A DNA stretch of 64,000 nt from a virus (lineage: Duplodnaviria; Heunggongvirae; Uroviricota; Caudoviricetes). A model generated the notes under the pieces. It saw only the letters and a list, made by a program, of their open reading frames with translations. It made no database searches and was not told the DNA's origin. Made by a program: the position numbers and the translations under genes. The stretch lies in IMG/VR virus record IMGVR_UViG_3300042448_001193; one strand, 5' to 3'. The stretch's first letter is position 1; each line of letters starts with the position of its first letter. Positions 14,319-48,532 of the stretch are shown here, piece by piece.

Positions 14319-14542
14319 ACGAACGAATTGAAGAACTAATGTTTGAGGCTGGTAGGTATGCTGATAAAAATACCGGAAGTTCAGACCGAAGTGGGATGTG
14401 GGTGTATCAATATAGTGAAAAGTTCGCCGAGTTGATTGTGAAAAAATGTATGGAACTTACCAAACGGTGTTCCACTGGTAAAGGCATACACGATTTATTT
14501 GCCGATGAAATCATTAAAGAACATTTCGGAGTTGAAGAATGA
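14315..14542 (+). CDS. multicopy family member (MNERIEELMFEAGRY ... EKFAELIVKKCMEL ... HFGVEE)
   Basis: start trimmed to ATG 14315 (ATGA overlap with upstream stop). Confidence 0.55.
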   Translation: MNERIEELMFEAGRYADKNTGSSDRSGMWVYQYSEKFAELIVKKCMELTKRCSTGKGIHDLFADEIIKEHFGVEE

Positions 14543-32145: not shown

Positions 32146-32508
32146 TTAGCTTTCGTCTTCCCCTTCCAGTTCAGACATTGCTTGCTCTACACCACTTTCA
32201 TCCATAATCTCAGCATAAAAATCATAGTATCCATCATCCGTTGGATAATACAGAATATACAGAAAACTATCGCCAGATAAGTGTGTTGCTAATTCTTCAC
32301 CTTCAGTGTTCAAATCATAAAGGGACTCAAATGCGATTCCCTCAAGATAAAGTATTTTACGAATCTTTGCGATACCCGATTCTGGTGTCAAGACAGGCTG
32401 AGTTAGCTCAACCATCAACAACAGATTGAGTTTACCCTGCGTTACTGAGTCAATGGAGACTTCATCTCCACCATCCATTGACTCCGTGATGAATTCTTTG
32501 AAATTCAT
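32146..32508 (-). CDS. small acidic protein with T4 CTS-like leader MNFKEFITE|S; candidate packaged internal protein
   Basis: N-terminus resembles T4 IP leader MKTYQEFIAE. Confidence 0.5.
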   Translation of the reverse strand: MNFKEFITESMDGGDEVSIDSVTQGKLNLLLMVELTQPVLTPESGIAKIRKILYLEGIAFESLYDLNTEGEELATHLSGDSFLYILYYPTDDGYYDFYAEIMDESGVEQAMSELEGEDES

Positions 32509-33068
32509 TAGCTGTCTGCAAACACTGTGTCATCGGAAGCGTCAGCAACACCTGCTTGACCGATGCTGCCCATAGCAACAAGAGTCTCTGTGTGTTCGCG
32601 CCCGACACGACCACCCATGGTGATTGTAATTGATACGTTAGAGTTTGGCACCGCGCCGATTGTTGGTGCAGCCAAGTAGTTACCACCAGTTGTCAGTGTA
32701 ATACCAGTAATCAACTTTGCACCGTTTGTAACGATACGTGCGTTAGCGGAAGTGTTACCTGTGCCACCGCCAGTGAATGTCAAGAATACGTTACCGTCAG
32801 GTGAGTATGAACTTGCATTCGCTGTAAGTGTTGCAACAGGACCTGTGCCTTGCTTTACAACAACCCAACCTGCGTGTGCTCCTTTTGGATTAGCCGCAAC
32901 GCCCTGTTCAGTACTGTCAACACCGAAAATGCCAACAGCTTGTCTAGGTGTGAATGCACCGATAGTTGTGCTACCAAACAGTGTTGCTCCGTTTGCATTG
33001 TTAGTAGCTGCAACGCCTGCGTGTTTTGGTGCCGCGTTGCTTGAATCTGATTTTGCCCATAGTGTCAT
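32508..33068 (-). CDS. Gly/Thr/Ala-rich beta protein, possible virion structural/decoration protein
   Basis: 186 aa, composition. Confidence 0.45.
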   Translation of the reverse strand: MTLWAKSDSSNAAPKHAGVAATNNANGATLFGSTTIGAFTPRQAVGIFGVDSTEQGVAANPKGAHAGWVVVKQGTGPVATLTANASSYSPDGNVFLTFTGGGTGNTSANARIVTNGAKLITGITLTTGGNYLAAPTIGAVPNSNVSITITMGGRVGREHTETLVAMGSIGQAGVADASDDTVFADS

Positions 33069-33094
33069 TTATGACTCCTTTTGTTATTGTTTAT

Positions 33095-34762
33095 TTATGT
33101 TTTGATGATCTGTGATGATAGCTCAGGTTCAGCTTGGAATGTATCAGCTTTTTCTTTGCTAGATGACTTAGAATTCTTAGCCAAATCTTTTACGATGCCA
33201 GCAGTCTTAGACAGTGAACGTTTCGCAGGTGTGCTTGTTTTCTCAAAAGAATCTTCCGGCTCTTGCTCTTCTTTTAGACCTGCTTGTTTACGTGCAGCAG
33301 TCTTTGCGAGGTGCTTAACTCTAGACATTGCTGTGTGTTTTGCGCCAGATTTGTCTGTTGTCACTTTTGTTGTATTTTTGGTATAAGGACCATCAAATGG
33401 AACCTCATAACGCTCTTTACCCAAGTCTGTTGCAGTTTGTTCAGCAGTAATGATAGGTGTAGGCTTCGCAGGCTTCTTAGCTGGTCCGGATGTGAAACGA
33501 CCAGCGTCCGGATTCTCGTTGGAGTTGCTAGTTTGACCAACTTCTTCCGCCACAACACTCTCAGCTTTGTACTTCTTAAACATATCAGTACCTTTTCTTG
33601 GTGCAAGACCTTGTGTGCGATATGCAGCAGCAGAAACAGCAGCGTATCGTTTTGTCTTCTTACTCGCCTCAGCGTTTGTGCCGGTGCCAGGCAATTCTCT
33701 TGCGCTGTCCATTGCTTTATTGACATAGGAGCCAAGAGTTTTCTTTGACAACTCATCAATCTGCTCAACTTCTTCCTTCATCCCTGTACGGCGAGACTCA
33801 CCTTCAATGTATGAGTGTAGTGATTCTACATCACTTTGAACTTTAGATAGTTTGTTCTGATACCACTCTTCAATTTCACCACCCATCTCAATGAACTCAA
33901 GAATTTCTTCAGCGGCATACTTGATGAAGTGTAGTTGCGTTTGGGCCATCTCAGTTTTTTCGGTGGTATCCGATTCAGCTTGCTCATTGATTTCAGCTTG
34001 TTTCAGAATACCTTTGACCAATGGTGCCTTTAATTGACGATGACGTGGAACTGGAATGTGGTGCTTTGCTTCTGGATGTGTGTATACATCGTGGCTACCT
34101 GATGTGCGCGAAAGTTTCCAACCACGCTTCTTCAGATGTTGATGCACAGCACGGGTATCCATGTTAGCACCAGGCATTTCATCTAGTTGCTCAACATCAA
34201 CAGACTCATCCCACTGCTTACCACGTGCCGCATTTCTAGCCGCAGATTTTGCACCATAGTTTTGTTGCAGTCTCTCAGCATCATACTTATGTACTGTAGC
34301 GCCTTTGACTTTCTTTGCAACGTTCTCGGCATGAGACTTGGTATCAAATGTTTTCCAGTGACGACCATTGACATGTACTGAGTGATAGTCTTTGGCGTCA
34401 GCTTCGGCCAGTTCAACCTCTTCATTAGTCTGTGAGTTTTTCAAATCCTTCTCGGATGGTGCACCCTCTGAGCCAGGCTTACGCATACGTTCACCTGAAC
34501 CTTTTTTGATTCTTTCACGCTTGGCATGAATGTTGTCCCACAGACCAGCTTCTTCAATGGTTTCTTCTTCTTTGATGGATTTGCCAGCAGATTTATCACC
34601 ATAAGTTGCCTGACGTTTTTTAGCAAGGTCGAGCTTATCTTTGACAGCTTTTCCCAACTTCGGATCAGCCTTCAGCATCCATCCTGTTCCAAGAGACTTT
34701 TTACCCTCTTCCAAAATGTCCTCACCGCGGACAAGACTTGCAATCTGCTTGAAACTTCTCAT
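33095..34762 (-). CDS. large charged protein with CTS-like leader (MRSFKQIASLVRGE|D) and internal HicA/YcfA-like domain (KKRGWKLSRTSGSHDVYTHPEAKHHIPVPRH ... KGILKQA)
   Basis: start set at ATG overlapping upstream stop (TAATG); HicA motif recognised by eye. Confidence 0.5.
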   Translation of the reverse strand: MRSFKQIASLVRGEDILEEGKKSLGTGWMLKADPKLGKAVKDKLDLAKKRQATYGDKSAGKSIKEEETIEEAGLWDNIHAKRERIKKGSGERMRKPGSEGAPSEKDLKNSQTNEEVELAEADAKDYHSVHVNGRHWKTFDTKSHAENVAKKVKGATVHKYDAERLQQNYGAKSAARNAARGKQWDESVDVEQLDEMPGANMDTRAVHQHLKKRGWKLSRTSGSHDVYTHPEAKHHIPVPRHRQLKAPLVKGILKQAEINEQAESDTTEKTEMAQTQLHFIKYAAEEILEFIEMGGEIEEWYQNKLSKVQSDVESLHSYIEGESRRTGMKEEVEQIDELSKKTLGSYVNKAMDSARELPGTGTNAEASKKTKRYAAVSAAAYRTQGLAPRKGTDMFKKYKAESVVAEEVGQTSNSNENPDAGRFTSGPAKKPAKPTPIITAEQTATDLGKERYEVPFDGPYTKNTTKVTTDKSGAKHTAMSRVKHLAKTAARKQAGLKEEQEPEDSFEKTSTPAKRSLSKTAGIVKDLAKNSKSSSKEKADTFQAEPELSSQIIKT

Positions 34763-34763
34763 A

Positions 34764-36557
34764 TTACTCTCCCTTGGCTTGCTTGGTGGCCGTAGCGTAC
34801 ATAACAGACTTAGCATCTTTGCCATAACGCTCTTTGAAGCCAGCAATGTTCTTCTTCATGCCTTTGACATTCTTTTCCAATGCAGCCTTTTCAGCGGTGG
34901 TCAATGAACGCTCTTCAATTTGCTCAACTTCTTCCTTAGCTAAACGATCAACAGCTTTGCCCATGTTTTCGCGGCGCTTCCAAGACTTAGCAAAAGTTTT
35001 ATCTGCTTTCTCCATGCTCTTTCTAGCATCATTGTAGCGTGAATCTTTACGTGCAGCTTCTGAATCATTAGCATGTTGACGAGTCAATGCGCCCTTGTGT
35101 GCAACATCATGAGATGCTTTCTTGACATAGGATGCTAGTGTAGACTTCTTTAGTTCATCTAGTTGTTCAAATTCTTCAGTTTGCATGAAGTTTTCAACAT
35201 CTTCAACAGTAAATTCAAGTTCATCTAAGTTTTCATATTCTTCTCTAGTCAAACGTTTAACAGCTTTTTTAACGCCGCGGTCTCGCTTTTTAATCACACG
35301 CTGATCTGCTTTCATTTCGCGGGCGTTACGAACCTGATCAGCTTTTTTTTCAGGTTGGGCACCATACGCCACGCTTGCAATATTATGCTCTCTATCTGCT
35401 TGACTTCTTACAGCTTTATTGATGTATGAACCGAGTGTCTTCTTACTTAACTCATCAATTTGTTCAACTTCTTCTTTAGTCAAACGATCTACCGCTCTTT
35501 GTATACCAGTAGTTGAATTTTTAAGTCTACGGAAGTTTCCTGGCGTCCTACGATTTCGTTCCAGTGTAGTAAGATGATGACCTACCTCGTGTGCGGCATA
35601 CCTCACCCTGCCTTGGGCTTTATTGATATATTTACCAAGAGTCTTCTTGCTCAGTTCATCTAGTTGTTCAAATTCTTCAGTTTGCATGAAGTTTTCAACA
35701 TCTTCAACAGTAAATTCAAGTTCATCTAAGTTTTCATATTCTTCTCTAGTCAAACGTTTAACAGCGCGATCAACGCCGCGATTTCGCTTTTTAATCACAC
35801 GTTCATCTTTTTTTATTTCGCGGGCTTGCTGTTTCACATCAGCTTTTTTTTCAGGTTGGTCGCCAAAGTGCAGACGTCCAATATTATAATCTTTATTTGC
35901 TACACTGCTTACAGCTTTATTGATGTATGAACCGAGTGTCTTCTTACTTAACTCATCAATTTGTTCAACTTCTTCTTTAGTCAAACGATCTACCGCTCTT
36001 TGTATACCAGTAGTTGAATTTTTAACTTTACGGACATGTTGTGGGGACGGTTTAAGTTTAGAAACATCACGTCCTATCATGTATGATCTATTTCTCACAT
36101 TATCTCGGGCAGCCTTAATATATTTACCAAGAGTCTTCTTGCTCAGTTCATCTAGTTGTTCAACAGATTCTTGCTTGACAGCTTGCACAGCAGGCTTTGC
36201 AACTTCAGCTTTGCTCTTGCCAATGGACTTGTCTTGTGCTATCTTGATCTCTTTGTTGAACTCTTCTTGAGATGCTTCTTCTTTTGTATACTTCTTAGTG
36301 TACACAGTGCCTGTGGAGATTTTCTTAGCATCGTGGCCAGTCTTCTCACCTTTTTCAGCAGTTTGGCGTGGAGTATTCTTCCAGTCAAATGGGCTAGCAG
36401 GCTTCTTGGCTTCCTCTTTGCGCAACAACTTGAAGTCGTGTGCATCAACTTTGCCGTTTTTGTTTTTATCGATCTTGTGTTGATCGCCTTTCAGTGCTTC
36501 GTCCACAACAGCTTTCACTGCTTCGGCCACTGATTTTAGAATTTTATCGTTGAACAT
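34764..36557 (-). CDS. large K/E-rich repeat protein with CTS-like leader (MFNDKILKSVAE|A); about 5 copies of EQ(I/L)DELSKKTLG(S/K)YINKA
   Basis: 597 aa; internal 0.5-kb tandem nucleotide duplications. Confidence 0.55.
   Translation of the reverse strand: MFNDKILKSVAEAVKAVVDEALKGDQHKIDKNKNGKVDAHDFKLLRKEEAKKPASPFDWKNTPRQTAEKGEKTGHDAKKISTGTVYTKKYTKEEASQEEFNKEIKIAQDKSIGKSKAEVAKPAVQAVKQESVEQLDELSKKTLGKYIKAARDNVRNRSYMIGRDVSKLKPSPQHVRKVKNSTTGIQRAVDRLTKEEVEQIDELSKKTLGSYINKAVSSVANKDYNIGRLHFGDQPEKKADVKQQAREIKKDERVIKKRNRGVDRAVKRLTREEYENLDELEFTVEDVENFMQTEEFEQLDELSKKTLGKYINKAQGRVRYAAHEVGHHLTTLERNRRTPGNFRRLKNSTTGIQRAVDRLTKEEVEQIDELSKKTLGSYINKAVRSQADREHNIASVAYGAQPEKKADQVRNAREMKADQRVIKKRDRGVKKAVKRLTREEYENLDELEFTVEDVENFMQTEEFEQLDELKKSTLASYVKKASHDVAHKGALTRQHANDSEAARKDSRYNDARKSMEKADKTFAKSWKRRENMGKAVDRLAKEEVEQIEERSLTTAEKAALEKNVKGMKKNIAGFKERYGKDAKSVMYATATKQAKGE
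35130..36180. repeat. imperfect tandem duplication of about 0.5 kb (2 copies plus partial third) inside gene 34764..36557
   Basis: blocks 35141-35285 vs 35642-35775 and 35413-35525 vs 35914-36025 nearly identical; partial at 36117-36170. Confidence 0.75.
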
Positions 36558-36583
36558 GGTTTTTCCTTTTTGTTTTATGTTAA

Positions 36584-38236
36584 TTAGTTATGTTCCTGCC
36601 AGTTTACAATGCCCACAGCATCATCGTTGTTGGTAGTGGCTATTGCTGCCAAACACCATATGTCTGATACACCTGCTATAGTTCTACCTAACTGTTGACT
36701 AAAGTCTATTTCGTTGCTAGTAACTTGAGCGGATCCGCCCTTATTAGATCCTACAAATACACCTTGCGTTATTACTTTGCCGCCAGATAATGCTGTAGCA
36801 GAGATGTCATACTCTACTGTACTGTCTGTGTCAGCACTGGTCCAATTAGCATCAGTCAATGTGGGATTGAGAATAATGCGATATGAAAAGGCTGCTTGTT
36901 GTAGTCCAAATACATCGAACGCAGTGGGCACTACAATAGAGTCCGGGGCTGTTGACTTCATGCGTAAACAGACTAATGGTCTGTACACGGTATTGCTGAG
37001 GTCCTTACCAGTTAGTGCTGTTCCTATGGCACGGGTAAAACTGCGATTACTATAACCGCCTTCCGACATAACTGTACTACAGATTGCTCTCATTGAGGCT
37101 GCGGGTCCAGTGCTGATCAATTCATATCGTAGGGGTAACGTAGCACTGGTCATATAGACCTTGTTTAATATGTTGGCATGATGAAAACTGTGACAAACGA
37201 TGAACTGTCCGTTAATCACAAATCCACAACGAACTGTCCCTACACCTAACCATTCTATGTCTGTCCAGAAGATTTGTGCTTTGGTTACATCTAATGTTAT
37301 TCCGCTGGCTCCAGTTCCATCTAATTTATCACCATTCCACAAACTTTGAGGGAATTTTTCCGTAGTGTCATCTACTGAACCAGAAGTGTATTTTCTAATA
37401 ACTAGATTTTTTGTGGTGTCTGCTACTTCAAAGTAGATGCCGTTCTGTGCTCCGAAATAGCCTGCTCGTTGTGTAACGCCAGCGGTAGGAGCGTTCATAA
37501 CAAAGGTCAACAGAACCAATAGACTCTTACCAGGCTGGTAGGAAAATACCTGTTTAGTCTGACGAATGGCCGATCCTGCTCCTGTAGCGCTCATTAGAAT
37601 AGAACTTTCGTTAGGTAAGAAAGAGGAAGTGACAGAGCCTGTGTCCACTTGGTCCCACTTGTATGTATTGTCAAAGTAACGCAGACCACCATCGAACAGT
37701 GTATATGGATTACTTACACGCAACCGTCCAAACGCATCAGTGGCCGCTGCCCCCAAAGTTACAGCACTGGTGCCAGTTAGGGTAGCATTTACATTACCAC
37801 TAATAGGTATAGGATTGCCGCTGTCGTTTTTAATCTCTACCTCAGGCATAGTGCCAATGTTAACTGTAGGAGTGCCGCTGATAGTAACTGTGGTATTTTC
37901 CAATGCTGACAATGTGTTTGCCGATAAACTAACGATGCCGTCTGTGCCAATGTTAACATTTCCGCCTATTGGCATATAAGATACAGTCAATAAACCACTT
38001 GTGCCAACTTCCGTAATGTGTGTATGAACTGGGTTTTCTGGCGAACTTGCGACATTAACCGTATCCACAAAATTCACGTTTCCAGTAATTGTGATATTTT
38101 CTGAACCAAGAGTTACTGGTAAAGGATTTGAGAGAGAAACGATATCACCATTAGCGTTATTAGCCAACATCATCACCTCATATCGAGATGAAATCTTCGG
38201 ATCTAGCGCACCAATATCTTTATTAAATTGTGCCAC
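36584..38236 (-). CDS. 550-aa probable virion structural protein (no CTS leader)
   Basis: long ORF, beta-rich, many NxT/S. Confidence 0.45.
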   Translation of the reverse strand: MAQFNKDIGALDPKISSRYEVMMLANNANGDIVSLSNPLPVTLGSENITITGNVNFVDTVNVASSPENPVHTHITEVGTSGLLTVSYMPIGGNVNIGTDGIVSLSANTLSALENTTVTISGTPTVNIGTMPEVEIKNDSGNPIPISGNVNATLTGTSAVTLGAAATDAFGRLRVSNPYTLFDGGLRYFDNTYKWDQVDTGSVTSSFLPNESSILMSATGAGSAIRQTKQVFSYQPGKSLLVLLTFVMNAPTAGVTQRAGYFGAQNGIYFEVADTTKNLVIRKYTSGSVDDTTEKFPQSLWNGDKLDGTGASGITLDVTKAQIFWTDIEWLGVGTVRCGFVINGQFIVCHSFHHANILNKVYMTSATLPLRYELISTGPAASMRAICSTVMSEGGYSNRSFTRAIGTALTGKDLSNTVYRPLVCLRMKSTAPDSIVVPTAFDVFGLQQAAFSYRIILNPTLTDANWTSADTDSTVEYDISATALSGGKVITQGVFVGSNKGGSAQVTSNEIDFSQQLGRTIAGVSDIWCLAAIATTNNDDAVGIVNWQEHN

Positions 38237-38614
38237 TTAGCAATTCCATTTTCTTAGTGCGAGAGCTTTACGGGACGGCTCTCCGTTAGGTTTCTTCATC
38301 GGACCTTCCACTCCACCCATTCTAGCACAGAATGACTTGCGACGGTTAGCAGCTTTACTGCCCGGTGTCAATTTTGATGGTGGTGTTGTAACCGGTGCTT
38401 TTAGATTGCCGCCATCTTTTCTGTTGTAGTAGTCACGACCCTTTTGAGTTAGACCACCAGTAGAGCTTTTTAGTCCTTTAGCATCAACTGCGGCTTCCAC
38501 TACAGTTTCTTCTTTCATACAAGAATCGGGTGAGTATGCTTTCTTACCTGGAACAGGTTTATAGCCTTTCCAGCAGCGCCCAGCTTCAGTGACAAAATCT
38601 TTATAGTTTTTCAT
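38237..38614 (-). CDS. small protein with CTS-like leader MKNYKDFVTE|A
   Basis: 125 aa; ATGA overlap with upstream 843-aa gene. Confidence 0.5.
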   Translation of the reverse strand: MKNYKDFVTEAGRCWKGYKPVPGKKAYSPDSCMKEETVVEAAVDAKGLKSSTGGLTQKGRDYYNRKDGGNLKAPVTTPPSKLTPGSKAANRRKSFCARMGGVEGPMKKPNGEPSRKALALRKWNC

Positions 38615-41142
38615 AGGTAATTCTTTCCTCTGAACGTGCTAAGTGATATGCCATGTTTAGCCAGTTCATCTTGTTTTTGTGCACCAATTGACGCTGTGGT
38701 TGAATCCCCACCCATTTCAGCAACAGGTTTCTTTTTCAGAGGATTCACTTTGCCATTCTTGTCATTGATTTCGCCCATGTCACGCCCAATGCCTTCGCCA
38801 CCAGCAGCCATGGACATGCCAGTTTCTATGCCTTTGTCGATGGCTTCTTTGAACGTGTTTTTGGCTTGCGAGAGGGTGAGCTTGCCTTTAAAGCGGCTGG
38901 CTTCGTGGATGTTTTTGGTGCTGGCTTCGGCACTGGCACTGGCACTTGTTCCTGCACTGTTACCACTGGAACTTCCACTTCCACTTTCGGTAATGGCTCT
39001 GGTACTACTACGACCGGAACTTCCACTTTCGGCAATGGTTGTGGCTCCGGTGCTGACTCCGGCACTACGGCTGGTGCTTCCACTTTCGGCAATGGTTGTG
39101 GCTCCGGTTCCACTGGCGGTTTGCTCTTCACAAAGAAACTTTTCACGAATTTCAACATTTACATTCTCCTTTAATTTAACTATGTAACCTTTGTCTGTCT
39201 TAACGACTTCACCACCTTTGGTGTGTGCGTCTTTAGCAGCATTGTTTCGTATTGCATATACTTTAGGCTTGTTGCCTGATGCAATATATGTAGCTCCATC
39301 TTTTACGGCAGTTCTTTCACCACTGATACTTTCGGAGACAAACATGGATTTTCCGAGCGTCAATAGATTGTATGCACCAGAATCAGACATTTCTGTGTGG
39401 TCCACGTGCTCCTCAACTTCCTGCTCTTCCACTTCTGCATCTCCATTGCCAGTCAGCATCTTCATTGCTTTTTGTAGCTCTTCTGGGGTATCAGCTTTGA
39501 AAGTAACTGAAACGGCCTCAAAAAGATTCTGAAAATCTTCGTTGATAGACTCTTTGACTGGTTTCTTGGGCACAGGCTTTTGGCTACTAGCTCCACTCAT
39601 AGGAACTTCAGCAGTTTTCTTAATCATCTTTTGCTGTTCAGCGTGTGTTGGATCCTGCACCAAAGTTCCGTGAACTGTGTGATGTGTGACTTTACCATTC
39701 TTACCATATCGGCCATAGCCATAGTATTGTAGCCCAAGGCGTCTAGCTTCATCAGTTGCTTTGTTTTCGCCCTCAGCGGAGTGTGGAATAGACAGTTCCG
39801 TGCCTTTCTTAGGAACAGGCAAGGTGTCTTTCTTCTGTAGTTCACCAGCAACCCAAGCCTTAGCTTGCTCATTCTTAGGTGGTGCTTGAACAAACTTTTG
39901 GACAGTCTTGAAGATGTTGTTCATCTCTTCTTTCTTGGCTTTGACCACTTCTGGTGCTGCGGTGCGCAAGTCTTCAGAGTTATCAAATTCAATATAGCTG
40001 TTGCCAAACAACTTAGCCATCTCTGGGCGTGAATTGTTTACTGCGTCCCACTTTTCTTTACGAATATTCTCAGGAACTGTACGACCACCTCTTTGCCCAC
40101 GCTCAACGTTTCTCTGTGCAGAAATTTCATCGCGTGTAACAACGGCAACCATAGAAGTTTCATAGCCAATTTCTTCTAAGTTTTTCTTTATCTTGGCATA
40201 CTTTGCGGGATCATCGCCTGTGCCATTGATAATGATGCCGTTGCGACCCAACAGCGCCAGCTTCTGCTTCAACTCTGTCATGTCTTTTGCTTTACCGCGA
40301 ACAAGTGTCCGTGCATCAGCTTCAGTCTCTGGCATTTTCTTGTCCAGATTATTCTTGTCCATCAGAAACTCAAGTGCTTTGTCTGAGTTGATTTCAATCA
40401 AGCCATGACCAGCAAGTGTGTTATCCAACACATAGTCTTTACCTGAGCCTGGACCGCCCGATAGAAACACAGCCTTGAAGATGCCTTTATCGTGGACACC
40501 CTCAGATAGGATCATCTGAATTTGTGATCGGAAATCTTCTTTGACTTGCATTCCCTTGCGCACATCATTATACAATTCTTTAGCGTGTTCTGGCGCTACG
40601 TGACTTGGAATGCCTTTTTTGAATTCTTTGAAGTTGCCTTTTGATGCATGGCTACGCATCTTGGATGCAGACATACCAGATACACCCTCAGCATCAGGAT
40701 CACGCTCACCAGCGGAGTGTACGTGAATACCACGAAACTTGAAGTATCCATGCGTACCTTTTACGCCATTGTATTTGTGTAAAATCTTCTCATACTCACC
40801 AGTTCTATCGGATCCTGCAACCATGTGCAAATGTGTAGCGCCAGCTTTGTGGAGTTTTGATGCTTGAGCCAGAAAGTTTGGATGTTCTTTACTGGAGGTT
40901 GTGATATTCGTGTCAGGAAAATATCGTTGTGCGTGTTTGACTTTTTGCTCACCTGAGAGTGGATTCTTCTCAGCGTCCTGTGAATGCGATAGAACCACGT
41001 GGTGTGTTCCTCTCACAGACTTAGCAACATCTTTGACTTTATCAACCAGTTTTGCATGACCGGTTGTTGGTGGATTCATGCGTCCGAACGCAAGGACCGC
41101 ATGTTTTTCTGTTGTTTCTTCTAAATATTGTCTGAACTTCAT
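38611..41142 (-). CDS. 843-aa fusion protein: CTS-like leader MKFRQYLEE|T; HxGH nucleotidyltransferase domain (GRMNPPTTGHAKL); P-loop kinase domain (FLSGGPGSGKD); repetitive low-complexity C-terminus (GATTIAESGS repeats)
   Basis: motifs read from translation; NadR-like (NMNAT plus kinase) architecture is inference. Confidence 0.5.
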   Translation of the reverse strand: MKFRQYLEETTEKHAVLAFGRMNPPTTGHAKLVDKVKDVAKSVRGTHHVVLSHSQDAEKNPLSGEQKVKHAQRYFPDTNITTSSKEHPNFLAQASKLHKAGATHLHMVAGSDRTGEYEKILHKYNGVKGTHGYFKFRGIHVHSAGERDPDAEGVSGMSASKMRSHASKGNFKEFKKGIPSHVAPEHAKELYNDVRKGMQVKEDFRSQIQMILSEGVHDKGIFKAVFLSGGPGSGKDYVLDNTLAGHGLIEINSDKALEFLMDKNNLDKKMPETEADARTLVRGKAKDMTELKQKLALLGRNGIIINGTGDDPAKYAKIKKNLEEIGYETSMVAVVTRDEISAQRNVERGQRGGRTVPENIRKEKWDAVNNSRPEMAKLFGNSYIEFDNSEDLRTAAPEVVKAKKEEMNNIFKTVQKFVQAPPKNEQAKAWVAGELQKKDTLPVPKKGTELSIPHSAEGENKATDEARRLGLQYYGYGRYGKNGKVTHHTVHGTLVQDPTHAEQQKMIKKTAEVPMSGASSQKPVPKKPVKESINEDFQNLFEAVSVTFKADTPEELQKAMKMLTGNGDAEVEEQEVEEHVDHTEMSDSGAYNLLTLGKSMFVSESISGERTAVKDGATYIASGNKPKVYAIRNNAAKDAHTKGGEVVKTDKGYIVKLKENVNVEIREKFLCEEQTASGTGATTIAESGSTSRSAGVSTGATTIAESGSSGRSSTRAITESGSGSSSGNSAGTSASASAEASTKNIHEASRFKGKLTLSQAKNTFKEAIDKGIETGMSMAAGGEGIGRDMGEINDKNGKVNPLKKKPVAEMGGDSTTASIGAQKQDELAKHGISLSTFRGKNYL
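38885..39125. repeat. about 60-bp tandem repeats encoding GATTIAESGS(S/T)xRS units
   Basis: ccactttcggcaatggttgtggctccggt recurring; generates spurious overlapping ORFs. Confidence 0.7.
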
Positions 41143-41196
41143 TTACTCCGCCTCTACAGCAAGTTTCATTATAGTCTATTTAGCAAAAAACAATTG

Positions 41197-41889
41197 TCAA
41201 TCTCTGACTAATTCTCCAGTCCTGGCGATCATTCCTGTGCAATACACACGGTCAACCTCAACCAGCTTATCTTTTGGAATGTGCAAAAAATGCACATGTT
41301 CTGTGTCCAATTGTCCAAGAATATTGAGATTTTTCTGTAATATTTCAAAATAATCATCAGCTAGACTGGAGCACAGTGAGAACAGTCTTGTGTCCAAGCA
41401 ATGTGTTGCACCAGAAACAACAGGATTCATCCATGTTTCATTGCGGCGCTTAAACACATAATGTCCTTGCTTGTCTGTATAATATGAAATGTCAAAGCCA
41501 TCATCAAGGACATATCTACCAGACAACTTGAATATTCTATCACACACGATTCCTTGCCTCTTTATGAAATTCAGCATTTCCATAAGAATGACTGTTTCAC
41601 CATGACTCTTCATGCCATGAGTTGAAAACATCTTGACTGCATGATGATCATTGAAACTCACAACCTTACAATATTCTTGCAGTTCATCTATCATTCCACC
41701 AAGTGGCGCAACTGAGATATCAGCGAGAAAGATCATAGCTGTTGGATCTTTCTCACGAATAGATTTCAGTGTGTCCAGTGTGTCGTTGAACCTCTGTATT
41801 GTATTGAAAACGCCAGCTTGTGTGAGCAAAGCGGAAGTTACGATGAATACATTCATGTGTGATTGAAGTCTCTGAATATGACAAACCAA
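41197..41889 (-). CDS. hypothetical protein, possible nucleotide-sugar transferase (230 aa)
   Basis: ORF in transferase cluster; weak. Confidence 0.35.
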   Translation of the reverse strand: MVCHIQRLQSHMNVFIVTSALLTQAGVFNTIQRFNDTLDTLKSIREKDPTAMIFLADISVAPLGGMIDELQEYCKVVSFNDHHAVKMFSTHGMKSHGETVILMEMLNFIKRQGIVCDRIFKLSGRYVLDDGFDISYYTDKQGHYVFKRRNETWMNPVVSGATHCLDTRLFSLCSSLADDYFEILQKNLNILGQLDTEHVHFLHIPKDKLVEVDRVYCTGMIARTGELVRD

Positions 41890-42683
41890 TAGTCAGGATT
41901 GACATAATTGATTTTGAAGTCGTGCGGTGACATTTTGTATGACATGAGCAACATGGACTGATCATCATCAATCAAATCCACTTCAATGTAGTTCATTATT
42001 GCCCGTGTCATGAGTGTTGCCATTTGCTTCCACTTTTCAACTGGTGCAACGATGTGACAGCCTTGGACGTACACATTATTTGTCTTGACGATATTGAATA
42101 TAGGTTCAGCTTCGTCAGGGTTGGAGAAACAGAACAGATTGATTAGATTCTGTGTGTTGAACTTCCATTCCATTCCAGCAGGACAGAATGTATCTTCACG
42201 CACATATCCAAAGTCTAACCAAGCAGCCGTGCCTGTTGACACATGACCCATCTTAATTGCTGTATTGACAAACAAAGATTTGGCGTAATTTATGAACACA
42301 TAATGTGGCGACCAATACTCAGGCATCGTTGGTTGATTCAGATGCGCAATAAACTCAGGGCGTCTTTGAATGTGTGCGATACGACTCAGTAGCTGGTTGT
42401 TGTCTTCAAAAATGTTATCAGCAACAACACAGATGATATCGTCACGATAACTCTTGATGGTGTCAATGAATTTGCTTTCGGTGAAAACAACGATAGGATT
42501 CTTTAGCTCAGTTAGTCGCTTGAATCTGTCCAGATATGTCTGTGTGTCACGCTTTAGGTAGTGTGGCAGTTGCTGACCATTTAGAGTACCTTCCCAATTT
42601 GACCTACCAATGTCAAAGAACGCAGTTACAATTGTGACAGTCTCACTCATTTCTTGATCCAGTACCATACATCGTTTGCACAA
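41853..42683 (-). CDS. hypothetical protein, possible glycosyltransferase (276 aa)
   Basis: ORF in transferase cluster; weak. Confidence 0.35.
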   Translation of the reverse strand: MCKRCMVLDQEMSETVTIVTAFFDIGRSNWEGTLNGQQLPHYLKRDTQTYLDRFKRLTELKNPIVVFTESKFIDTIKSYRDDIICVVADNIFEDNNQLLSRIAHIQRRPEFIAHLNQPTMPEYWSPHYVFINYAKSLFVNTAIKMGHVSTGTAAWLDFGYVREDTFCPAGMEWKFNTQNLINLFCFSNPDEAEPIFNIVKTNNVYVQGCHIVAPVEKWKQMATLMTRAIMNYIEVDLIDDDQSMLLMSYKMSPHDFKINYVNPDYWFVIFRDFNHT

Positions 42684-43201
42684 GTTTGTACTTCTGCGCC
42701 GTGCTTGGCTGCAAATTCATTTACCGCACGATTTACACCTTCGATGACATTGTAATCGTGACCTGCAAAAACACCACCAGATTTTACTTTACTGAAGTAA
42801 TTCTCACAGTCAATCGTGACTTGTTCGTATGTGTGTATTCCATCAATAAATATGAAATCGAGTGAGTCATCTTCAAAATGATTGACCATATTATCCGAGA
42901 AATCACGATGCATGACGAATCTATCACCGAACTCAGCACAGTAATCCAGAATCTGTTTGTGCATGTCAACACGATCTGTCAGGAATCTACCATTCCAGTC
43001 TTCATAGTTGACATACGGATCAATACCATGCAACACCAACTCAGGTAAGTTTTTCAGCAAATAGTGTGTTGTGTGGCCTTCAGCACAGCCGATCTCCAAA
43101 CCAACCTGTGGTCCCTTATCACGCAATAGTAGCAGAAGTCCTTTACCTGAACAAATCCACTCATTGGCAGGATTAGTATTCATTACAATGTAATCGCTCA
43201 T
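42647..43201 (-). CDS. class I SAM-dependent methyltransferase (GLEIGCAEGHTT), macrocin-O-MTase/FkbM-like
   Basis: SAM-binding motif I. Confidence 0.5.
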   Translation of the reverse strand: MSDYIVMNTNPANEWICSGKGLLLLLRDKGPQVGLEIGCAEGHTTHYLLKNLPELVLHGIDPYVNYEDWNGRFLTDRVDMHKQILDYCAEFGDRFVMHRDFSDNMVNHFEDDSLDFIFIDGIHTYEQVTIDCENYFSKVKSGGVFAGHDYNVIEGVNRAVNEFAAKHGAEVQTCANDVWYWIKK

Positions 43202-43210
43202 AATATTCTT

Positions 43211-44095
43211 TCATGTAGTAATAGTAAAATACTTAGGAGATGACCCAGTATCAGTTTCAGTTGTAATCTTCACATCATACTTATCATAGAAGTATTTTGT
43301 CCACTCAGGCACTCGGTCGTACTGATGCACAATAACGAAAGGCTCACCATCGGCGTTCTTAACAACACCATCTTCCATGTATGGACGATCCTCAAGTAAA
43401 TATGGACCAAACTCGTCCATCTGGTCTGGTTTATTTGTCACATGTGCATTCAATGCCCAGCCATCCATCAGTGGAAGACATGTCGCCACCTCGTTCCATG
43501 GCTTGAAACTCAGCAACATATTATATGCAGCTTGATCAGCAACCCAGTCGGGACGATTACTAGACATTTGAAATAGTGCAAAGCACAGGTCCTTGATGTA
43601 TTCTGTTGTGCCCGCTAGGATGCCCACGTTGAATACTTCATGTTCTTTGATATCCTCATAGAAGTATTGACCAAAGTTTTTGATGATGTTTTCACGATTC
43701 CATCGCTCATGCTGAATCTGGATTGCTTCCGATTGTGCTACGATACCTTTGTAGCTACCATATAGATTGTGTAGATACAAGCTAGGATTGCTCTGAAATA
43801 TCACATCACGAACATCTGTAGTGATGACATAGCGATATTTGTTATGGTACTTTTTCAGGAAATCGTAGATGTATAGGAAGCGCATCATGTGAATCATCAT
43901 GTTGCCTTGCTTTGGATGCTCAACAACAGTCACACCAGCGTCTTCAATCTCTAACACAATACTTTTCGGTGCATCAATTGCAATCAGTACAATATCACCA
44001 TCGAAGCCAGTTTCTTTGATGGAATGAATCCACGGCTTGACAACGTTGAAGTCGCTGTAGTTACTAAATGCACCAATTATTAAATCTTTCGCCAT
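43211..44095 (-). CDS. hypothetical protein (294 aa) in transferase cluster
   Basis: ORF; overlaps GT2 gene end. Confidence 0.4.
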   Translation of the reverse strand: MAKDLIIGAFSNYSDFNVVKPWIHSIKETGFDGDIVLIAIDAPKSIVLEIEDAGVTVVEHPKQGNMMIHMMRFLYIYDFLKKYHNKYRYVITTDVRDVIFQSNPSLYLHNLYGSYKGIVAQSEAIQIQHERWNRENIIKNFGQYFYEDIKEHEVFNVGILAGTTEYIKDLCFALFQMSSNRPDWVADQAAYNMLLSFKPWNEVATCLPLMDGWALNAHVTNKPDQMDEFGPYLLEDRPYMEDGVVKNADGEPFVIVHQYDRVPEWTKYFYDKYDVKITTETDTGSSPKYFTITT

Positions 44096-44808
44096 GGATA
44101 GTTTCCTTTCAAATGCTGTTGCATCGCATTATTACCGCGAATAAAGAATGAGTCCTGTACAGAGTCTGCGCGACTCGCCACCCTATAGTTTACAGTATAT
44201 TGACCATTCGTGTCAAATGTTTTCGACTTGGCCATCATAAATGCCGAAAGAATTCTATCAACTTCAGGTTGATCGTTAGGATGTCTAGCTCTACGATACC
44301 AATATGGAGCAAATTCTAGTGCGGCCATCTTCGGTATCATGAAACAGTTCACATCAACAAAATTGTCACCGATCACCGATTGCCACTTACCAAGTGATTC
44401 ACAGTCATCATTACAAATGTAGTTGCCATCCTGATCAACGATTTTGCGTAATGAGTATGCCCAATCATTACCTCTTGTGAGTTGGTTAACTAGCGATTCA
44501 ATGTGATTATCATCGTACCAATTGTCTTGGTCTAGAAAGCACAGGTATTCGCCCTCAGCAATAAATGTCATAGCACCATAGATACGATGACCATTGTATT
44601 GGCTATGACCTGTGTTATATGGTAATGTGAGTATACTAGCATATCGTGATCCGACAATGGAATCTAGTGCATTTTCATAATGCTCAACTCCATCAACAAC
44701 GATTAGATGCTGTATGTTCTTGTATGTTTGATTATCAACAGACCGAACTGCGTCAGCTAATTGAGCAGTTCCTGTTGTTGGTGTAATTACTGTGATCAAT
44801 GGGTTCAT
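44080..44808 (-). CDS. family-2 glycosyltransferase (ITVITPT ... DxD FLDQDNWY)
   Basis: GT-A N-terminal motif and DxD. Confidence 0.55.
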   Translation of the reverse strand: MNPLITVITPTTGTAQLADAVRSVDNQTYKNIQHLIVVDGVEHYENALDSIVGSRYASILTLPYNTGHSQYNGHRIYGAMTFIAEGEYLCFLDQDNWYDDNHIESLVNQLTRGNDWAYSLRKIVDQDGNYICNDDCESLGKWQSVIGDNFVDVNCFMIPKMAALEFAPYWYRRARHPNDQPEVDRILSAFMMAKSKTFDTNGQYTVNYRVASRADSVQDSFFIRGNNAMQQHLKGNYPWRKI

Positions 44809-44824
44809 AATATAATTGAGTTAG

Positions 44825-45130
44825 TTACTGACCTGGAGTATCTCGTTTGTATCGCTTGACTAGCAAGTCTGTGCCCTCTTGCCCTGCGCCAGCTGGTGGC
44901 AGAATGTCTGGATTAGGAGACTTCTTTTCTTCATGCACACTTTTATGTAGCTGAACTCCAGTGACTTTCTGGACCATATCCCAAGCATCCTTTGTTCGCT
45001 TGTTCTTCACATGATCATCAAATTTCTTTTTCTGTTCAGGTGTAGCTTTTTGCTTGAATTTGATAAGTTCCATAATGCCGATGTTACCAGCATAAGATGC
45101 TTCTTTCACCAGTTCTTTGAATGACTGCAT
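44825..45130 (-). CDS. small basic protein with CTS-like leader MQSFKELVKE|A
   Basis: start at ATG overlapping upstream stop (TAATG). Confidence 0.45.
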   Translation of the reverse strand: MQSFKELVKEASYAGNIGIMELIKFKQKATPEQKKKFDDHVKNKRTKDAWDMVQKVTGVQLHKSVHEEKKSPNPDILPPAGAGQEGTDLLVKRYKRDTPGQ

Positions 45131-46362
45131 TATTTGTCCCACGCTTTCTGTGCGGTGAAGTTTGCATGACTGAATTCAAGTCTATCAACCAACTTGACGG
45201 CATTACCTTTTAGTCGATCAACAGCAACAAAGCCTTCTGGATTCGTGACCTTAAATCCATCATCTGTACGTAAGAATGCACCAGTAACTTGACGCATCTG
45301 TTGTAACTTTTTGATAATGATATTCTTGGAATCAACGATCATATTCATGATATCAAAAATCTTAACAAGCTCGGCAAAGTTGCTTCGATAGAATCGCATG
45401 ATTTCATTCTTTTCAGCTTGACGCTTGAGTTTAGTGTCTTCTCTTTTAGCGGCAATAATCTCTTTGTTCAGCTTGTCTTCAATCCATTTCAACAGTCCTT
45501 TCGCATGTTCCGTTGTATCTTTGATGTGTTCACCGGAACGAACTTTCGTGTTGTTGTATGTTTTGATCTGAACATTGAATATCTCAGAGGTAGCAATACG
45601 ATTCAGGGTCATGCTACTGGTTCTTTGGAACAGGGATCCTGCTTGAGATAAAATAGCTGTGATTTCTTTAGTCTCTTTTTCGGTAAATGTGACTGTACCA
45701 GATGCGTCAACGAAATATGCATCACGGAACCAAACATCCTTAGTTGCTTTCATTCTACCAATATCGATGTTGAATGAAGACTTCAAATCTGCGATTGTCT
45801 TTCCTGTGTATGCCGTATGAAACACAATACCCATTTGTGCTGTCAACATGGACTTAGCTAGTGCAGAATCTTCAGGAACCGCATACACGATTGTGTTTGG
45901 TTGAAATGTCACATACTTGACACCATCAATCGTTGCTTTCTTGATATCACCTTTAGCAAACATCATGTCGCCTTGCAGAATGCCATCGATACCAATCTTA
46001 GGCAAGTATGCTAGTGCAACCTTCAGTTTCTTATTCAGGCCTTCACCTGGATGATTTCTGTCAATATCTTCATCGGTGTAGTTCAGCTTTGCATCTTTGT
46101 TGAAGATGCCTTTTGTGGCTACAAAGAACTTACCATTCTCTGGATTAGTGCCAGCAAATACAGCAGGTGCACCGTCCCATTTTGTGGTAATGTTTACCTT
46201 GCCGTCTGAATTGCCAGCAAGCATGTCTCTGAGTGATCGCAAAAAGTTGATTGCATCTCTCGTACCAGCTACACCGCGATTTAGAACTTCTTCCTCGATA
46301 TGCTCTAGGTGAACGTTCTTGCCTTCTTTTGAGGACTCTGTTAGGAATTCTTTGAATTTCAT
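45130..46362 (-). CDS. covalent nucleotidyltransferase (ligase/capping superfamily, KxDG motif TTKWDGAP) with CTS-like leader MKFKEFLTE|S; candidate packaged RNA/DNA ligase
   Basis: motif I KWDG plus downstream DGI/K-rich motifs; start set at TAATG overlap. Confidence 0.4.
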   Translation of the reverse strand: MKFKEFLTESSKEGKNVHLEHIEEEVLNRGVAGTRDAINFLRSLRDMLAGNSDGKVNITTKWDGAPAVFAGTNPENGKFFVATKGIFNKDAKLNYTDEDIDRNHPGEGLNKKLKVALAYLPKIGIDGILQGDMMFAKGDIKKATIDGVKYVTFQPNTIVYAVPEDSALAKSMLTAQMGIVFHTAYTGKTIADLKSSFNIDIGRMKATKDVWFRDAYFVDASGTVTFTEKETKEITAILSQAGSLFQRTSSMTLNRIATSEIFNVQIKTYNNTKVRSGEHIKDTTEHAKGLLKWIEDKLNKEIIAAKREDTKLKRQAEKNEIMRFYRSNFAELVKIFDIMNMIVDSKNIIIKKLQQMRQVTGAFLRTDDGFKVTNPEGFVAVDRLKGNAVKLVDRLEFSHANFTAQKAWDK

Positions 46363-47123
46363 TACGTAAAACACCCTAAACTTAAATCTTTTTTGATAAT
46401 TGTGACACTTTTGCCATCAACTGGAGCAATGTTGAATGGTGATTTTTTGCTTGATGGTATAGAAAATTGCATTTCAAAAGTGAACTGATAATTGCCGCTA
46501 CCTTTATATTGAACCCTGGCTCTATAAGTTGCTTTTGCAGAAGTACCGAAGCGAGGAACGTCTTTCAGCTTTAAGGGATTTTTTGAGCCCATTAAGTAGA
46601 AACCGTGAGTGCCAACATTTACATAGTAAGTATCTTTTTTGTTGTAATAATCTTCAATTTCTTTTGCACTAATCTCACCACGAATATCTTGAAAAGTATC
46701 TCTATCCCTTTCATATCTCTTTTGAGGAGATAGTTTACCTGCAGTGGCTTCCCATAATGGATCTTTATCTCTCTTGAAAGGAATTTCTTTCCACTCAGCT
46801 TTAAGTCTTTTGAATAATCCAACTTCTTCAGCTAGATTCTTAATAAAGAACTTTTCAGCATCATCTTCACTGACATTGCCAAATTTCCAGGGACTTTTTT
46901 TATCTTTCGCATCATATTTCAAAACAAGGGAACCAGCGGACGCTGCCGTGATTTTCAATTCACAACCAGCTTTGTCTTTCTTATGTTCAAGCATCAAATC
47001 TGGTTGATCATGTCCTGCTCCCGCTGGCTTAAAACTTTTAGGCACAAGACCCATAGGTTTCAAGACATTAGCGGCATTTATTTCGTATTGGAAGCCTTGT
47101 TGAGCGGCCATAAAAATCTCCAT
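46362..47123 (-). CDS. hypothetical protein (253 aa); possible PD-(D/E)xK-like motif QPDLMLEHK
   Basis: ORF; motif speculative. Confidence 0.4.
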   Translation of the reverse strand: MEIFMAAQQGFQYEINAANVLKPMGLVPKSFKPAGAGHDQPDLMLEHKKDKAGCELKITAASAGSLVLKYDAKDKKSPWKFGNVSEDDAEKFFIKNLAEEVGLFKRLKAEWKEIPFKRDKDPLWEATAGKLSPQKRYERDRDTFQDIRGEISAKEIEDYYNKKDTYYVNVGTHGFYLMGSKNPLKLKDVPRFGTSAKATYRARVQYKGSGNYQFTFEMQFSIPSSKKSPFNIAPVDGKSVTIIKKDLSLGCFT

Positions 47124-47134
47124 TTATTGGATAT

Positions 47135-48532
47135 TTATACACGAACACCTTCGAACTTTGAGTTGAATTTACGCTCACGATTACCAAAGGTATTGATAGG
47201 CTTGTCATCAACTTGACCAGAATCTATGATGTTCTGTGCAATATCCTCAACATCATACAGCCTCATCTTGGATTTGTCAACACCAATCACGAATTTCTTA
47301 TTCTCGTTAGGATCACTGTATCGATTCTTGAGTTGTTTCACCATGATTTGATTCAGTTGGTGCAATTCTTCTGTACTGATCAATGCGAACATAAAGTCAG
47401 CAGTTGCAGGCAAACCAAATGATTCTGAGGTATCTTCAAGGCCAACGTCTGAGTTGCTGAAACCACTTCGTGTTGTCTGTGTTGCAGAAACGATAGGCAC
47501 GTTGAATTCAACTGCAAGGCCGCGCAACTCTTCAGCAATAGCTTTGATGTATGTGTATGAGTTTACACTTGCACCCATCTTCATTCTAGAGGAACAGCAG
47601 ATGTTCAGATAGTCGATAAAGATGATCTTTGGTCGAAAGTTCTTTTTCAGGTGCAATTCGTTCAACAGTGAACGGAAGTGCATTGATCCAGCAGCCGCAG
47701 TTGGATACTCTTTGATGACTAACTTACCTTGTGCTTTGTTCTGAACAGCTTTGAATCTGCGAACATATTCATCTTTACTGATAACGTGGAGATCATTGAT
47801 TGCAATATTCAACAGATTCGCATCGATTCGTTCTGCAATCTTTTCCTCAGACATTTCCATGGTGATGTACAACACATCGGTGCCAGCCGAGATACAACCA
47901 GCAGCAACGTGACACATGAACAAACTCTTACCAACACCGGTACCAGCAAGTGCAATATTCAGTGTCTTGTTAGGCAAACCACCCTTGGTGATTTTGTTGA
48001 AGTAATCCAGATCAAACGGAACACGTTCTTCTTTCCTGTGATAGAATTCAAAACGACTTTCATAATCACTGATGTAGTCATGACCAACGTTCTGGTCAAA
48101 TGATACACCCAATGCATCAGCAAGAATCTTGGGAATCTCACCTTTGCCTTTGGTGCTTTTCTTATCATCAAGAATCGTTACAGATTCCATGATAGCATTG
48201 TAGATTGCTTTGTCCTGACAAAACTTTTCTGTCTGGTCAGTCAACCAATCAATGTTGGTTTCTTCATTACGTTGCTCATGAATTTCATTCAGTAACTCAA
48301 TGGCGCCACGAACCTGCTCTTCGGTATGATTCTTACCCTCAGTGAGATTAATAATCAATGCTTCATGTGTCGGCAAATTCTTGTATTTGTCCAGAAACTC
48401 ACGAACTTCATTGAATACAAGTTTCTCTACGTTATCAGAGAAGTATTCCTCTTGAATGAAAGGTATTGTTTTTCTGGTAAAGTCTTCATTATAAATCAGA
48501 CTCTTCAGAATAGATTTTTCTAGGCGATTCAA
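47135..48532 (-). CDS. gp41: replicative DnaB-family helicase (T4 gp41-like)
   Basis: Walker A GTGVGKS, RecA-like C-terminal domain, 465 aa. Confidence 0.8.
   Translation of the reverse strand: MNRLEKSILKSLIYNEDFTRKTIPFIQEEYFSDNVEKLVFNEVREFLDKYKNLPTHEALIINLTEGKNHTEEQVRGAIELLNEIHEQRNEETNIDWLTDQTEKFCQDKAIYNAIMESVTILDDKKSTKGKGEIPKILADALGVSFDQNVGHDYISDYESRFEFYHRKEERVPFDLDYFNKITKGGLPNKTLNIALAGTGVGKSLFMCHVAAGCISAGTDVLYITMEMSEEKIAERIDANLLNIAINDLHVISKDEYVRRFKAVQNKAQGKLVIKEYPTAAAGSMHFRSLLNELHLKKNFRPKIIFIDYLNICCSSRMKMGASVNSYTYIKAIAEELRGLAVEFNVPIVSATQTTRSGFSNSDVGLEDTSESFGLPATADFMFALISTEELHQLNQIMVKQLKNRYSDPNENKKFVIGVDKSKMRLYDVEDIAQNIIDSGQVDDKPINTFGNRERKFNSKFEGVRV

Follow-up and report, generated by a model that had tools for sequence, protein, structure and literature searches.

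Probable T4-type capsid-targeting leaders on five proteins of a Kyanoviridae-like phage

The DNA analyzed here is a 64,000-nucleotide stretch (the window) of a Caudoviricetes virus, IMG/VR record IMGVR_UViG_3300042448_001193. It belongs to a T4-like phage whose minus strand carries gp45, gp44, gp62, regA, the gp43 polymerase, uvsX, the gp41 helicase, gp61, and nrdA/B; the polymerase is ~52% identical to Kyanoviridae polymerases. In the gp41-gp61 block, five proteins begin with leaders of 9 or 10 residues that are probably T4-type capsid-targeting sequences (CTS) and mark the proteins for packaging. By analogy with T4, the tagged proteins would then probably travel inside the virion and enter the host together with the DNA. 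An earlier reading made from the sequence alone had flagged seven open reading frames (ORFs) as bearing such leaders. All seven are present on the minus strand, at the places and with the N termini it gave, and five of them follow the T4-like pattern, as listed below (arrows, predicted cleavage sites; aa, amino acids; pI, isoelectric point).

45130 to 46362, minus strand: 410-aa protein, leader MKFKEFLTE↓S (46336 to 46362), short linker, then a whole-length DUF6267 domain
44825 to 45130, minus strand: 101-aa basic protein of no known family, leader MQSFKELVKE↓A (45101 to 45130), mature pI 9.6
38611 to 41142, minus strand: 843-aa protein, leader MKFRQYLEE↓T (41116 to 41142)
38237 to 38614, minus strand: 125-aa basic protein, leader MKNYKDFVTE↓A (38585 to 38614), a 30-residue spacer ending in a second site, TVVE↓A, then DUF6321
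32146 to 32508, minus strand: 120-aa protein of no known family, very acidic in its mature form (pI 4.05), leader MNFKEFITE↓S (32482 to 32508)

Capsid-targeting sequences on the T4 proteins IPI, IPII, IPIII, and Alt were reportedly described by Mullaney and Black in 1996. They have since been reviewed (PMC9026906, PMC5694885). In the T4 leader, positions 4 and 7 serve targeting, positions 8 and 10 serve processing, and Asp at P1 blocks processing (PMC9026906); Alt is cut at ITE-6 and LTE-619 (PMC5694885). The five listed leaders carry the targeting determinants, F/Y followed three residues later by F/Y/L at positions 3/6 or 4/7, and all end in gp21-type sites (ITE↓S, VTE↓A, LEE↓T, VKE↓A, and LTE↓S). 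The start-stop overlaps of the TAATG/ATGA type that had been noted for several of the genes are found at the 410-, 101-, 125-, and 120-aa genes.

The occurrence of the leader was quantified with a regular expression, ^M.{1,2}[FYW]..[FYWLIM][ILV].E, built from T4 positions 4/7 (targeting) and 8/10 (processing). It matched 8 of the 830 ATG codons that, over all six frames, are followed by at least 40 codons, namely, the five gene starts listed above and three internal methionines. Among called genes it matched 5 of 128, compared to 0.09 expected from the N-terminal composition of the phage's own genes (P = 4.6e-8), and all five lie within the 21-gene gp41-gp61 block (hypergeometric P = 7.7e-5). 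As a positive control, 44 kb of T4 yielded ipII and ipIII and nothing further. In the whole 174-kb genome of cyanophage S-SM1, a single true gene start out of 240 genes matched. The restriction to the block extends to relatives: in 80 viral contigs anchored on gp41, the leader was found in 0 of 367 ORFs upstream and 47 of 364 ORFs downstream (Fisher P = 1e-15), while 80 contigs anchored on gp23, which cover structural regions, had it in 1 of 940 ORFs.

The leader behaves as a module that comes and goes among the members of a protein family. DUF6267 comprises 2,714 representatives after clustering at 50% identity, of which the best 150 were inspected. A strict leader is present in 40 of these and near-variants in several more, while many DUF6267 representatives begin directly at the NxHLEHxED core, as do the leaderless homologues of S-PM2, S-SM1, and Syn9. 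F3, F/Y6, L/I7, and E9 are conserved across 120 close homologues of the 410-aa protein, whereas positions 2, 4, 5, and 8 and the linker length vary; the conserved positions are those that function in T4 genetics. The leader of this family is encoded by 27 distinct DNA versions, in which F3 is TTC (20) or TTT (7), E9 is GAG (9) or GAA (18), and the 12 nucleotides upstream are not conserved. Because alternative codons are used and the upstream DNA is free to vary, selection acts on the peptide. Asp is accepted at leader position 5 in 6 of the 27 versions, but the P1 Glu is kept in all 27, which matches the finding that Asp blocks processing in T4. In a confident AlphaFold model of the 410-aa protein (pLDDT 90.7), residues 1 to 12 are the sole low-confidence segment; this model was obtained with 58 diverse representatives, whereas 20 sequences at ≥74% identity gave a pLDDT of only 55.

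The same modularity is seen in the other families. All seven Kyanoviridae-type cytidylyltransferase orthologues examined by alignment consist of leader, linker of 4 to ~70 residues, and FGRxNPPTxGH core, and 120 of 120 cytidylyltransferases of the S-SM1 clade have the leader, with variation at the P2 residue only. The homologues in Klebsiella phage K64-1, Erwinia phage Hallingskeid, and Pseudoalteromonas phage XG4 begin at the core without it. The DUF6321 protein has a naturally occurring 95-aa variant, MKNYKDFVVE↓AAVDAKG..., which is present on 9 contigs and keeps the leader while losing exactly the 30 residues between VTE-10 and VVE-40. The population forms of this family (P0528 and P0530) are thus 125 aa long or, lacking the Cys-containing spacer between the two V-x-E↓A sites, 95 aa long. 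The leader of the 101-aa protein is likewise present in relatives, and genes positioned like the 120-aa gene, just upstream of DUF7207, have leader-like starts in Methylophilales phage Melnitz (MKNFKNHIAE↓E) and Pelagibacter phage HTVC008M (MKSFKDFQNVNE). Further candidate cargo is encoded in both phages: a RimK-like ATP-grasp enzyme outside the block in Melnitz, starting MTQKFSQFITE↓E (L001, 82 to 1131), and a 359-aa protein in HTVC008M with a 19-residue leader, MKTFTDFSTDLLRLKTQLE↓G (L004, 23783 to 24862), which is strikingly like that of T4 IPI (MKTFKEFTSTTTPVSTITE↓A).

Published virion proteomes connect the leader to virion content in one of these families. The cytidylyltransferase T4-GC190 was detected with 25 peptide counts in purified S-SM1 virions (Sullivan et al. 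2010, PMC3037559). Its gene, SSM1_190, begins MKKFSAFLNE↓A and is the sole motif-bearing gene start of S-SM1. The orthologue in S-CREM2, ORF154, was also detected in virions (PMC10665884) and begins MKNFSSFLTE↓A. The leaderless DUF6267 protein (T4-GC71) of S-SM1, S-PM2, and Syn9 does not appear among the proteins tabulated as detected (PMC3037559). Further proteins encoded in the block, T4-GC1453, 1454, 1455, 425, and 426, were detected in S-SM1 virions as well (PMC3037559). A recent cyanomyovirus proteome was uninformative for the leader-bearing family (PMC12801897). The leader was also considered as a predictor of detection across all three older cyanophage proteomes, which fails for gp184 of Syn9.

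No head genes lie in the window itself, and the capsid machinery was sought on related contigs. The gp23 of the lineage was reached through proteins identical or nearly identical to those of the window, by way of gp46/47 on intermediate contigs, to contig L016, which is linked to the window by near-identical proteins. An IMG/VR contig, L025, encodes a gp23 that is 98% identical to that of L016, in the order gp20, small core-like proteins, gp21, gp22, and gp23. Its gp21 is a Peptidase_S77 protein (E value of 1.3e-34) with 56% identity to S-SM1 gp21 and ~39% to T4 gp21, and its gp22 is a T4_CASP scaffold protein (E value of 2.4e-65). The gp23 propeptide of the lineage ends in GMLNE↓T, an L-x-E site whose T4 counterpart is FLTE↓A. 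The search for a gp21-like prohead protease that had been suggested for this phage thus succeeded on a related contig; neither the window nor any contig of proven identity with it supplied the gene. Between gp20 and gp21 (L025, 4594 to 6304) lie genes for a 69-aa acidic protein and for proteins of 236, 143, and 120 aa, where T4 has gp67/gp68, genes reported as missing in the cyanophage literature; two of these small proteins start leader-like (MKSLQEFKSVVEE and MNFIELISQNKLSE).

The motif, its nonrandom restriction to the block, its modular conservation as a peptide, and the machinery of the lineage are observed in the sequences, and we infer the steps of loading from T4. Late in infection, precursors would be made with an amphipathic N-terminal propeptide of 9 to 10 residues. 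The aromatic/hydrophobic pair (F/Y at position 3 or 4 and F/Y/L three residues later) would dock the precursor on the gp22 core during prohead assembly, and a gp21-type protease would then cleave after the Glu of (I/L/V)-x-E, ahead of a small residue (S/A/T). The mature protein, basic in four of the five cases and acidic in the 120-aa protein, would be retained in the head with the DNA and would probably enter the next host along with the genome.

Two further features of the block bear on its role in the virion.

36584 to 38236, minus strand: 550-aa leaderless protein, matching phrog_1645, "virion structural protein" (E value of 2.4e-110)
47132 to 47139, minus strand: TATAAATA, the consensus of T4-type late promoters, directly preceding the gene that opens the block (253 aa, 46362 to 47123)

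The phrog_1645 match indicates that the block also contains conventional virion components. A second promoter-like element, CATAAATA, occurs with a strong ribosome-binding site upstream of the 186-aa gene at 33068. The 253-aa first gene was considered as an orthologue of the leader-bearing 361-aa protein of Melnitz or of S-SM1 T4-GC1453, but BLAST found no similarity to either.

The remaining two flagged proteins are weaker candidates.

33095 to 34762, minus strand: 555-aa basic protein starting MRSFKQIASLVRGE, with a HicA_toxin domain (residues 206 to 258)
34764 to 36557, minus strand: 597-aa basic Lys/Glu-rich repeat protein, MFNDKILKSVAE↓A, with a phrog_5709 match

Both had been counted among the matching leaders, and neither fits the pattern. 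The cut proposed for the 555-aa protein, RGE↓D, does not conform to (L/I/V)-x-E, for which ILE-18 and LEE-19 are the closest sites. Its start, MRSFKQI, resembles the targeting half of the leader (F4/I7), and the N terminus is conserved in a relative; a cut at ILE-18 or LEE-19 would make the leader IPI-like, with 18 to 19 residues, which keeps this protein as a weak candidate. The 597-aa protein has a V-A-E↓A site but lacks the aromatic pair. The repeat E-x-x-E-Q-(I/L)-D-E-L-S-K-K-T-L-G-x-Y-(I/V)-x-K-A is present in five copies in the 597-aa protein and one copy in the 555-aa protein, and every copy contains (I/L)-D-E, a type of site that gp21 cuts. One might speculate that the 597-aa protein is cut as a polyprotein into small basic peptides. 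Both proteins may be loaded like the others through longer or degenerate leaders. The proposal of a T4-type packaged battery is thus supported for five of the seven proteins by the T4-like genome, the motif, its modularity, the gp21/gp22/gp23 of the lineage, and the detection of cytidylyltransferase orthologues in virions by mass spectrometry, while the 555- and 597-aa proteins are only possible members.

Other accounts of the leader have to be weighed against capsid targeting. It could be the first helix of each fold or a chance likeness with no signaling role, given that short amphipathic helices are common at N termini and that the 555- and 597-aa proteins fit only loosely. We find this scarcely credible, because the leader is common to five unrelated protein families that also have leaderless members, its linker ranges from 4 to ~70 residues, residues 1 to 12 alone are poorly defined in an otherwise confident model, and the chance probability is ~5e-8. 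It is also very unlikely, and already largely refuted, that the conserved entity is a nucleotide element, such as a translation-initiation region, a coupling cassette, or a recombination module. The TAATG/ATGA overlaps translationally couple genes, the leaders of the 410- and 120-aa proteins are very similar in DNA, K, N, F, and E are favored by AT-rich early codons, and another short DNA cassette (AACATTTCGGAGTTGAAGAATG) recurs at gene junctions elsewhere in the window. Against this stand the 27 DNA versions with their alternative codons (TTC/TTT, CTA/TTA, and GAA/GAG) and unconserved upstream nucleotides, the 0.09 matches expected under the composition-based null, and the recurrence of the leader on unrelated contigs in proteins less than 50% identical.

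A leader that is real but serves another purpose is harder to set aside, although we consider it unlikely. It might act as an inhibitory propeptide, a degron, a noncapsid assembly tag, or a helix that docks on a membrane or partner, with the proteins acting only in the cell that produces them, and the cargo enzymes could equally work in the cytoplasm. What speaks for capsid targeting instead is that the motif coincides with the T4 CTS at all four genetically important positions and ends in a gp21-type site, that a leader-bearing orthologue was detected in two independent virion proteomes, that the leaderless neighbor was absent, and that six of the seven mature proteins are basic (pI 9.1 to 10.1, compared to 4.05 for the 120-aa protein), like the T4 internal proteins. 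Several observations nevertheless weigh against the capsid-targeting explanation. Gp184 of Syn9 bears the leader yet is not in the older Syn9 proteome, and the S-CREM2 authors allowed for contamination of their virions by abundant late proteins (PMC10665884). The S-SM1 virion proteins T4-GC1453, 1454, and 1455 have no strict leader, so the leader is not the sole route into the particle, and mass spectrometry of virions supports only one cargo family, the cytidylyltransferase orthologues. The one-residue register slack in the regular expression was added post hoc, once 9-residue leaders were known, and just two of the five leaders match in the strict T4 register. The gp21 evidence is indirect, since it was reached by a chain of near-identical proteins. 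The late-promoter evidence is weak: the motif TATAAATA has 6 matches in the window versus 2.7 expected, which is not a significant enrichment, so that its position upstream of the block is a suggestive local hint of late expression only.

The sequence-only reading had noted predicted enzymes and a toxin-like domain in the set; the domains that qualify as toxin-like are the Zeta_toxin/AAA_33 region of the 843-aa protein and the HicA_toxin region of the 555-aa protein. The DUF6267 domain of the 410-aa protein has an RNA-ligase-like nucleotidyltransferase fold, in which the lysine of motif I (KxDG) is present along with motifs IV and V. In the predicted structure, its fold relatives would be ATP-dependent RNA ligases (T4 Rnl1/Rnl2, Naegleria RNA ligase, and the Trl1 ligase domain), from which it differs by a helical insertion of ~130 residues (228 to 355) within the domain. 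A Foldseek search of the PDB found nothing significant, sequence and profile searches against it returned only low-complexity helical matches, and a search of NCBIfam added nothing. The 843-aa protein consists of an HxGH cytidylyl/adenylyl-transferase (residues ~14 to 205; PHROG cytidyltransferase, E value of 1e-65), a Zeta-toxin/AAA_33 P-loop kinase (residues ~223 to 370), and a long low-complexity tail rich in Ser, Gly, and Thr. The kinase matches Pfam Zeta_toxin PF06414 (E value of 7.5e-13, 48.8 bits against a cutoff of 22.3) and AAA_33 PF13671 (E value of 8.5e-8, 33 bits against a cutoff of 27), with the Walker A motif GGPGSGKD, and no epsilon-type antitoxin is evident for it. The 125-aa protein matches Pfam DUF6321 (E value of 1.4e-25). 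The HicA domain of the 555-aa protein (PF07927, E value of 2.1e-12, 47.4 bits against a cutoff of 27; phrog_353 "toxin," E value of 1.4e-14) is embedded in 555 residues, in contrast to free-standing HicA toxins.

The ligase-like, nucleotidyltransferase, and kinase parts are adjacent in the window and fused in various pairs elsewhere: DUF6267 is found joined to a nucleotidyltransferase or to a kinase, while the kinase is a separate gene in HTVC008M. These fusions suggest that the three activities work together. We put forward, tentatively, a wider proposal: that this abundant uncultured lineage, phages of the Melnitz/HTVC008M type, and many cyanophages preload the capsid with a linked kit (ligase-like enzyme, HxGH nucleotidyltransferase, and P-loop kinase) that is injected and acts before phage gene expression, with the CTS an ancient, portable signal older than the split between T-even and marine T4-like phages and converting ordinary enzymes into effectors that are injected. 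The protein with the HicA-type RNase domain and the small acidic protein may belong to the same kit. Its possible roles are the repair of RNA (tRNA) cut by host defense nucleases, the restoration of nucleotide cofactors, and the shutoff of host mRNA.

Among 50,697 phage records searched for near-identical DNA, the block had a single 55-bp match and no isolate of its lineage. The exact proteins of the window are present on up to 26 metagenomic contigs (the longest being 142.8 kb), where they are always annotated as hypothetical, and the closest cultured relatives for the flagged genes are Melnitz and HTVC008M. The gp41-gp61 block is syntenic in Melnitz, HTVC008M, S-PM2, S-SM1, Syn9, and S-CREM2, and it differs in gene content even among near-identical relatives. 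In the middle of the leader-bearing block, an island on the minus strand (41197 to 44808) encodes a glycosyltransferase, HtrL_YibB, and a methyltransferase; relatives swap it for other sets of sugar-nucleotide and glycosyltransferase genes. Homing endonuclease genes are found as well, with a GIY-YIG gene between gp45 and gp44 in the window (59765 to 60325, plus strand) and, in a relative of 98% identity, LEM-3/GIY-YIG and I-TevI-like genes that interrupt the genes for the polymerase and gp41 (L006, 3120 to 3791 and 7139 to 7822). Close to the replication module, upstream of gp45, relatives' contigs (L008 to L010 and L015, and in part the window at 53 to 56 kb) encode PF20691 TAGT (T4 alpha-glucosyltransferase-like), dCMP deaminase, MazG/dGTP_diPhyd_N, and PRA-PH. 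Such a gene set suggests DNA that is hypermodified and possibly glycosylated; if so, injected antirestriction cargo would make biological sense.

The plus strand of the window contains at least five small, early-looking genes whose products share a C-terminal peptide, ending in (K/T)(E/K)HFG(V/I)EE, NHFGVK, or TKFGV at the stop codon. The 22-nucleotide sequence AACATTTCGGAGTTGAAGAATG occurs three times on this strand with at most one mismatch (6844 to 6865, 12710 to 12731, and 14520 to 14541; 0 expected), and further ORF ends with the shared peptide lie near 7585 and 6152. The sequence includes the Shine-Dalgarno element and ATGA overlap of the next gene, and its conservation reaches past the Shine-Dalgarno element. 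The element represents either a C-terminal tail common to these proteins or a mobile cassette for translational coupling.

The mechanism discussed here is textbook knowledge for T4, and what is new is its members in a lineage where they were not previously described. A review has already proposed that the CTS lets T4-like phages load diverse proteins (PMC9026906). We found no paper tying a CTS to cyanophage, pelagiphage, or Kyanoviridae proteins and none linking virion cytidylyltransferases and kinases to a CTS or to gp21; a review of T4-related genomes and one of cyanophage genomes do not mention internal proteins, and the latter gives gp67/gp68 as absent. The S-SM1 and S-CREM2 papers reported enzymes in virions and gave no loading mechanism (PMC3037559, PMC10665884). 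A T4-type leader offers a testable mechanism for the "nonstructural" enzymes repeatedly seen in virions of T4-like cyanophages, and M-x(1,2)-[FY]-x-x-[FYL]-[ILV]-x-E↓ becomes a predictive cargo rule for very abundant marine and freshwater phages. In S-SM1, the one pick of this rule among 240 genes is a protein found in virions by mass spectrometry. If the leaders are indeed CTSs, conservation from coliphage T4 to distant Kyanoviridae-type phages would extend to the targeting peptide, the scaffolding core, and the gp21 protease. DUF6267, DUF6321, and the nucleotidyltransferase-kinase would then be candidate first-minute effectors in host takeover or counterdefense, and the leaders could serve as portable tags for loading foreign proteins into noncoliphage capsids.

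Three known systems provide the closest comparisons. The likeness to T4 lies in a propeptide of 9 to 10 residues (~19 in IPI) in which an aromatic/hydrophobic pair with a spacing of three precedes (I/L/V)-x-E and a small residue, as in MKTYQEFIAE↓A of IPII and IPIII and MKTFKEF...ITE↓A of IPI versus MKNYKDFVTE↓A, MKFKEFLTE↓S, and MNFKEFITE↓S in the window. The lineage also shares the gp21 Peptidase_S77 and gp22 core, and its cargo is mostly basic, dispensable-looking, and variable among close relatives. It differs from T4 in that three of the five leaders are shorter by one residue, that the lineage is a distant Kyanoviridae-like branch (gp21 ~39% identical), and that its candidate cargo is unrelated to the internal proteins and Alt and consists mostly of enzymes of 400 to 840 residues. 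With S-SM1 and S-CREM2, the window shares the nucleotidyltransferase domain of the 843-aa protein, orthologous to T4-GC190/ORF154, in the same gp41-gp61 block and with the same leader. In the window, however, this domain is fused to a zeta-like kinase, and four further proteins besides the nucleotidyltransferase bear leaders, whereas S-SM1 has one leader-bearing gene. The giant phages phiKZ, 201phi2-1, and SPN3US likewise package proteins, including enzymes, in the head and have propeptides cut after Glu by a gp21-related protease (PMC5694885). Their sites are (S/A/G)-x-E and their propeptides often exceed 100 residues (PMC5694885), whereas both the site and the length of the leaders in the window are of the T4 type.

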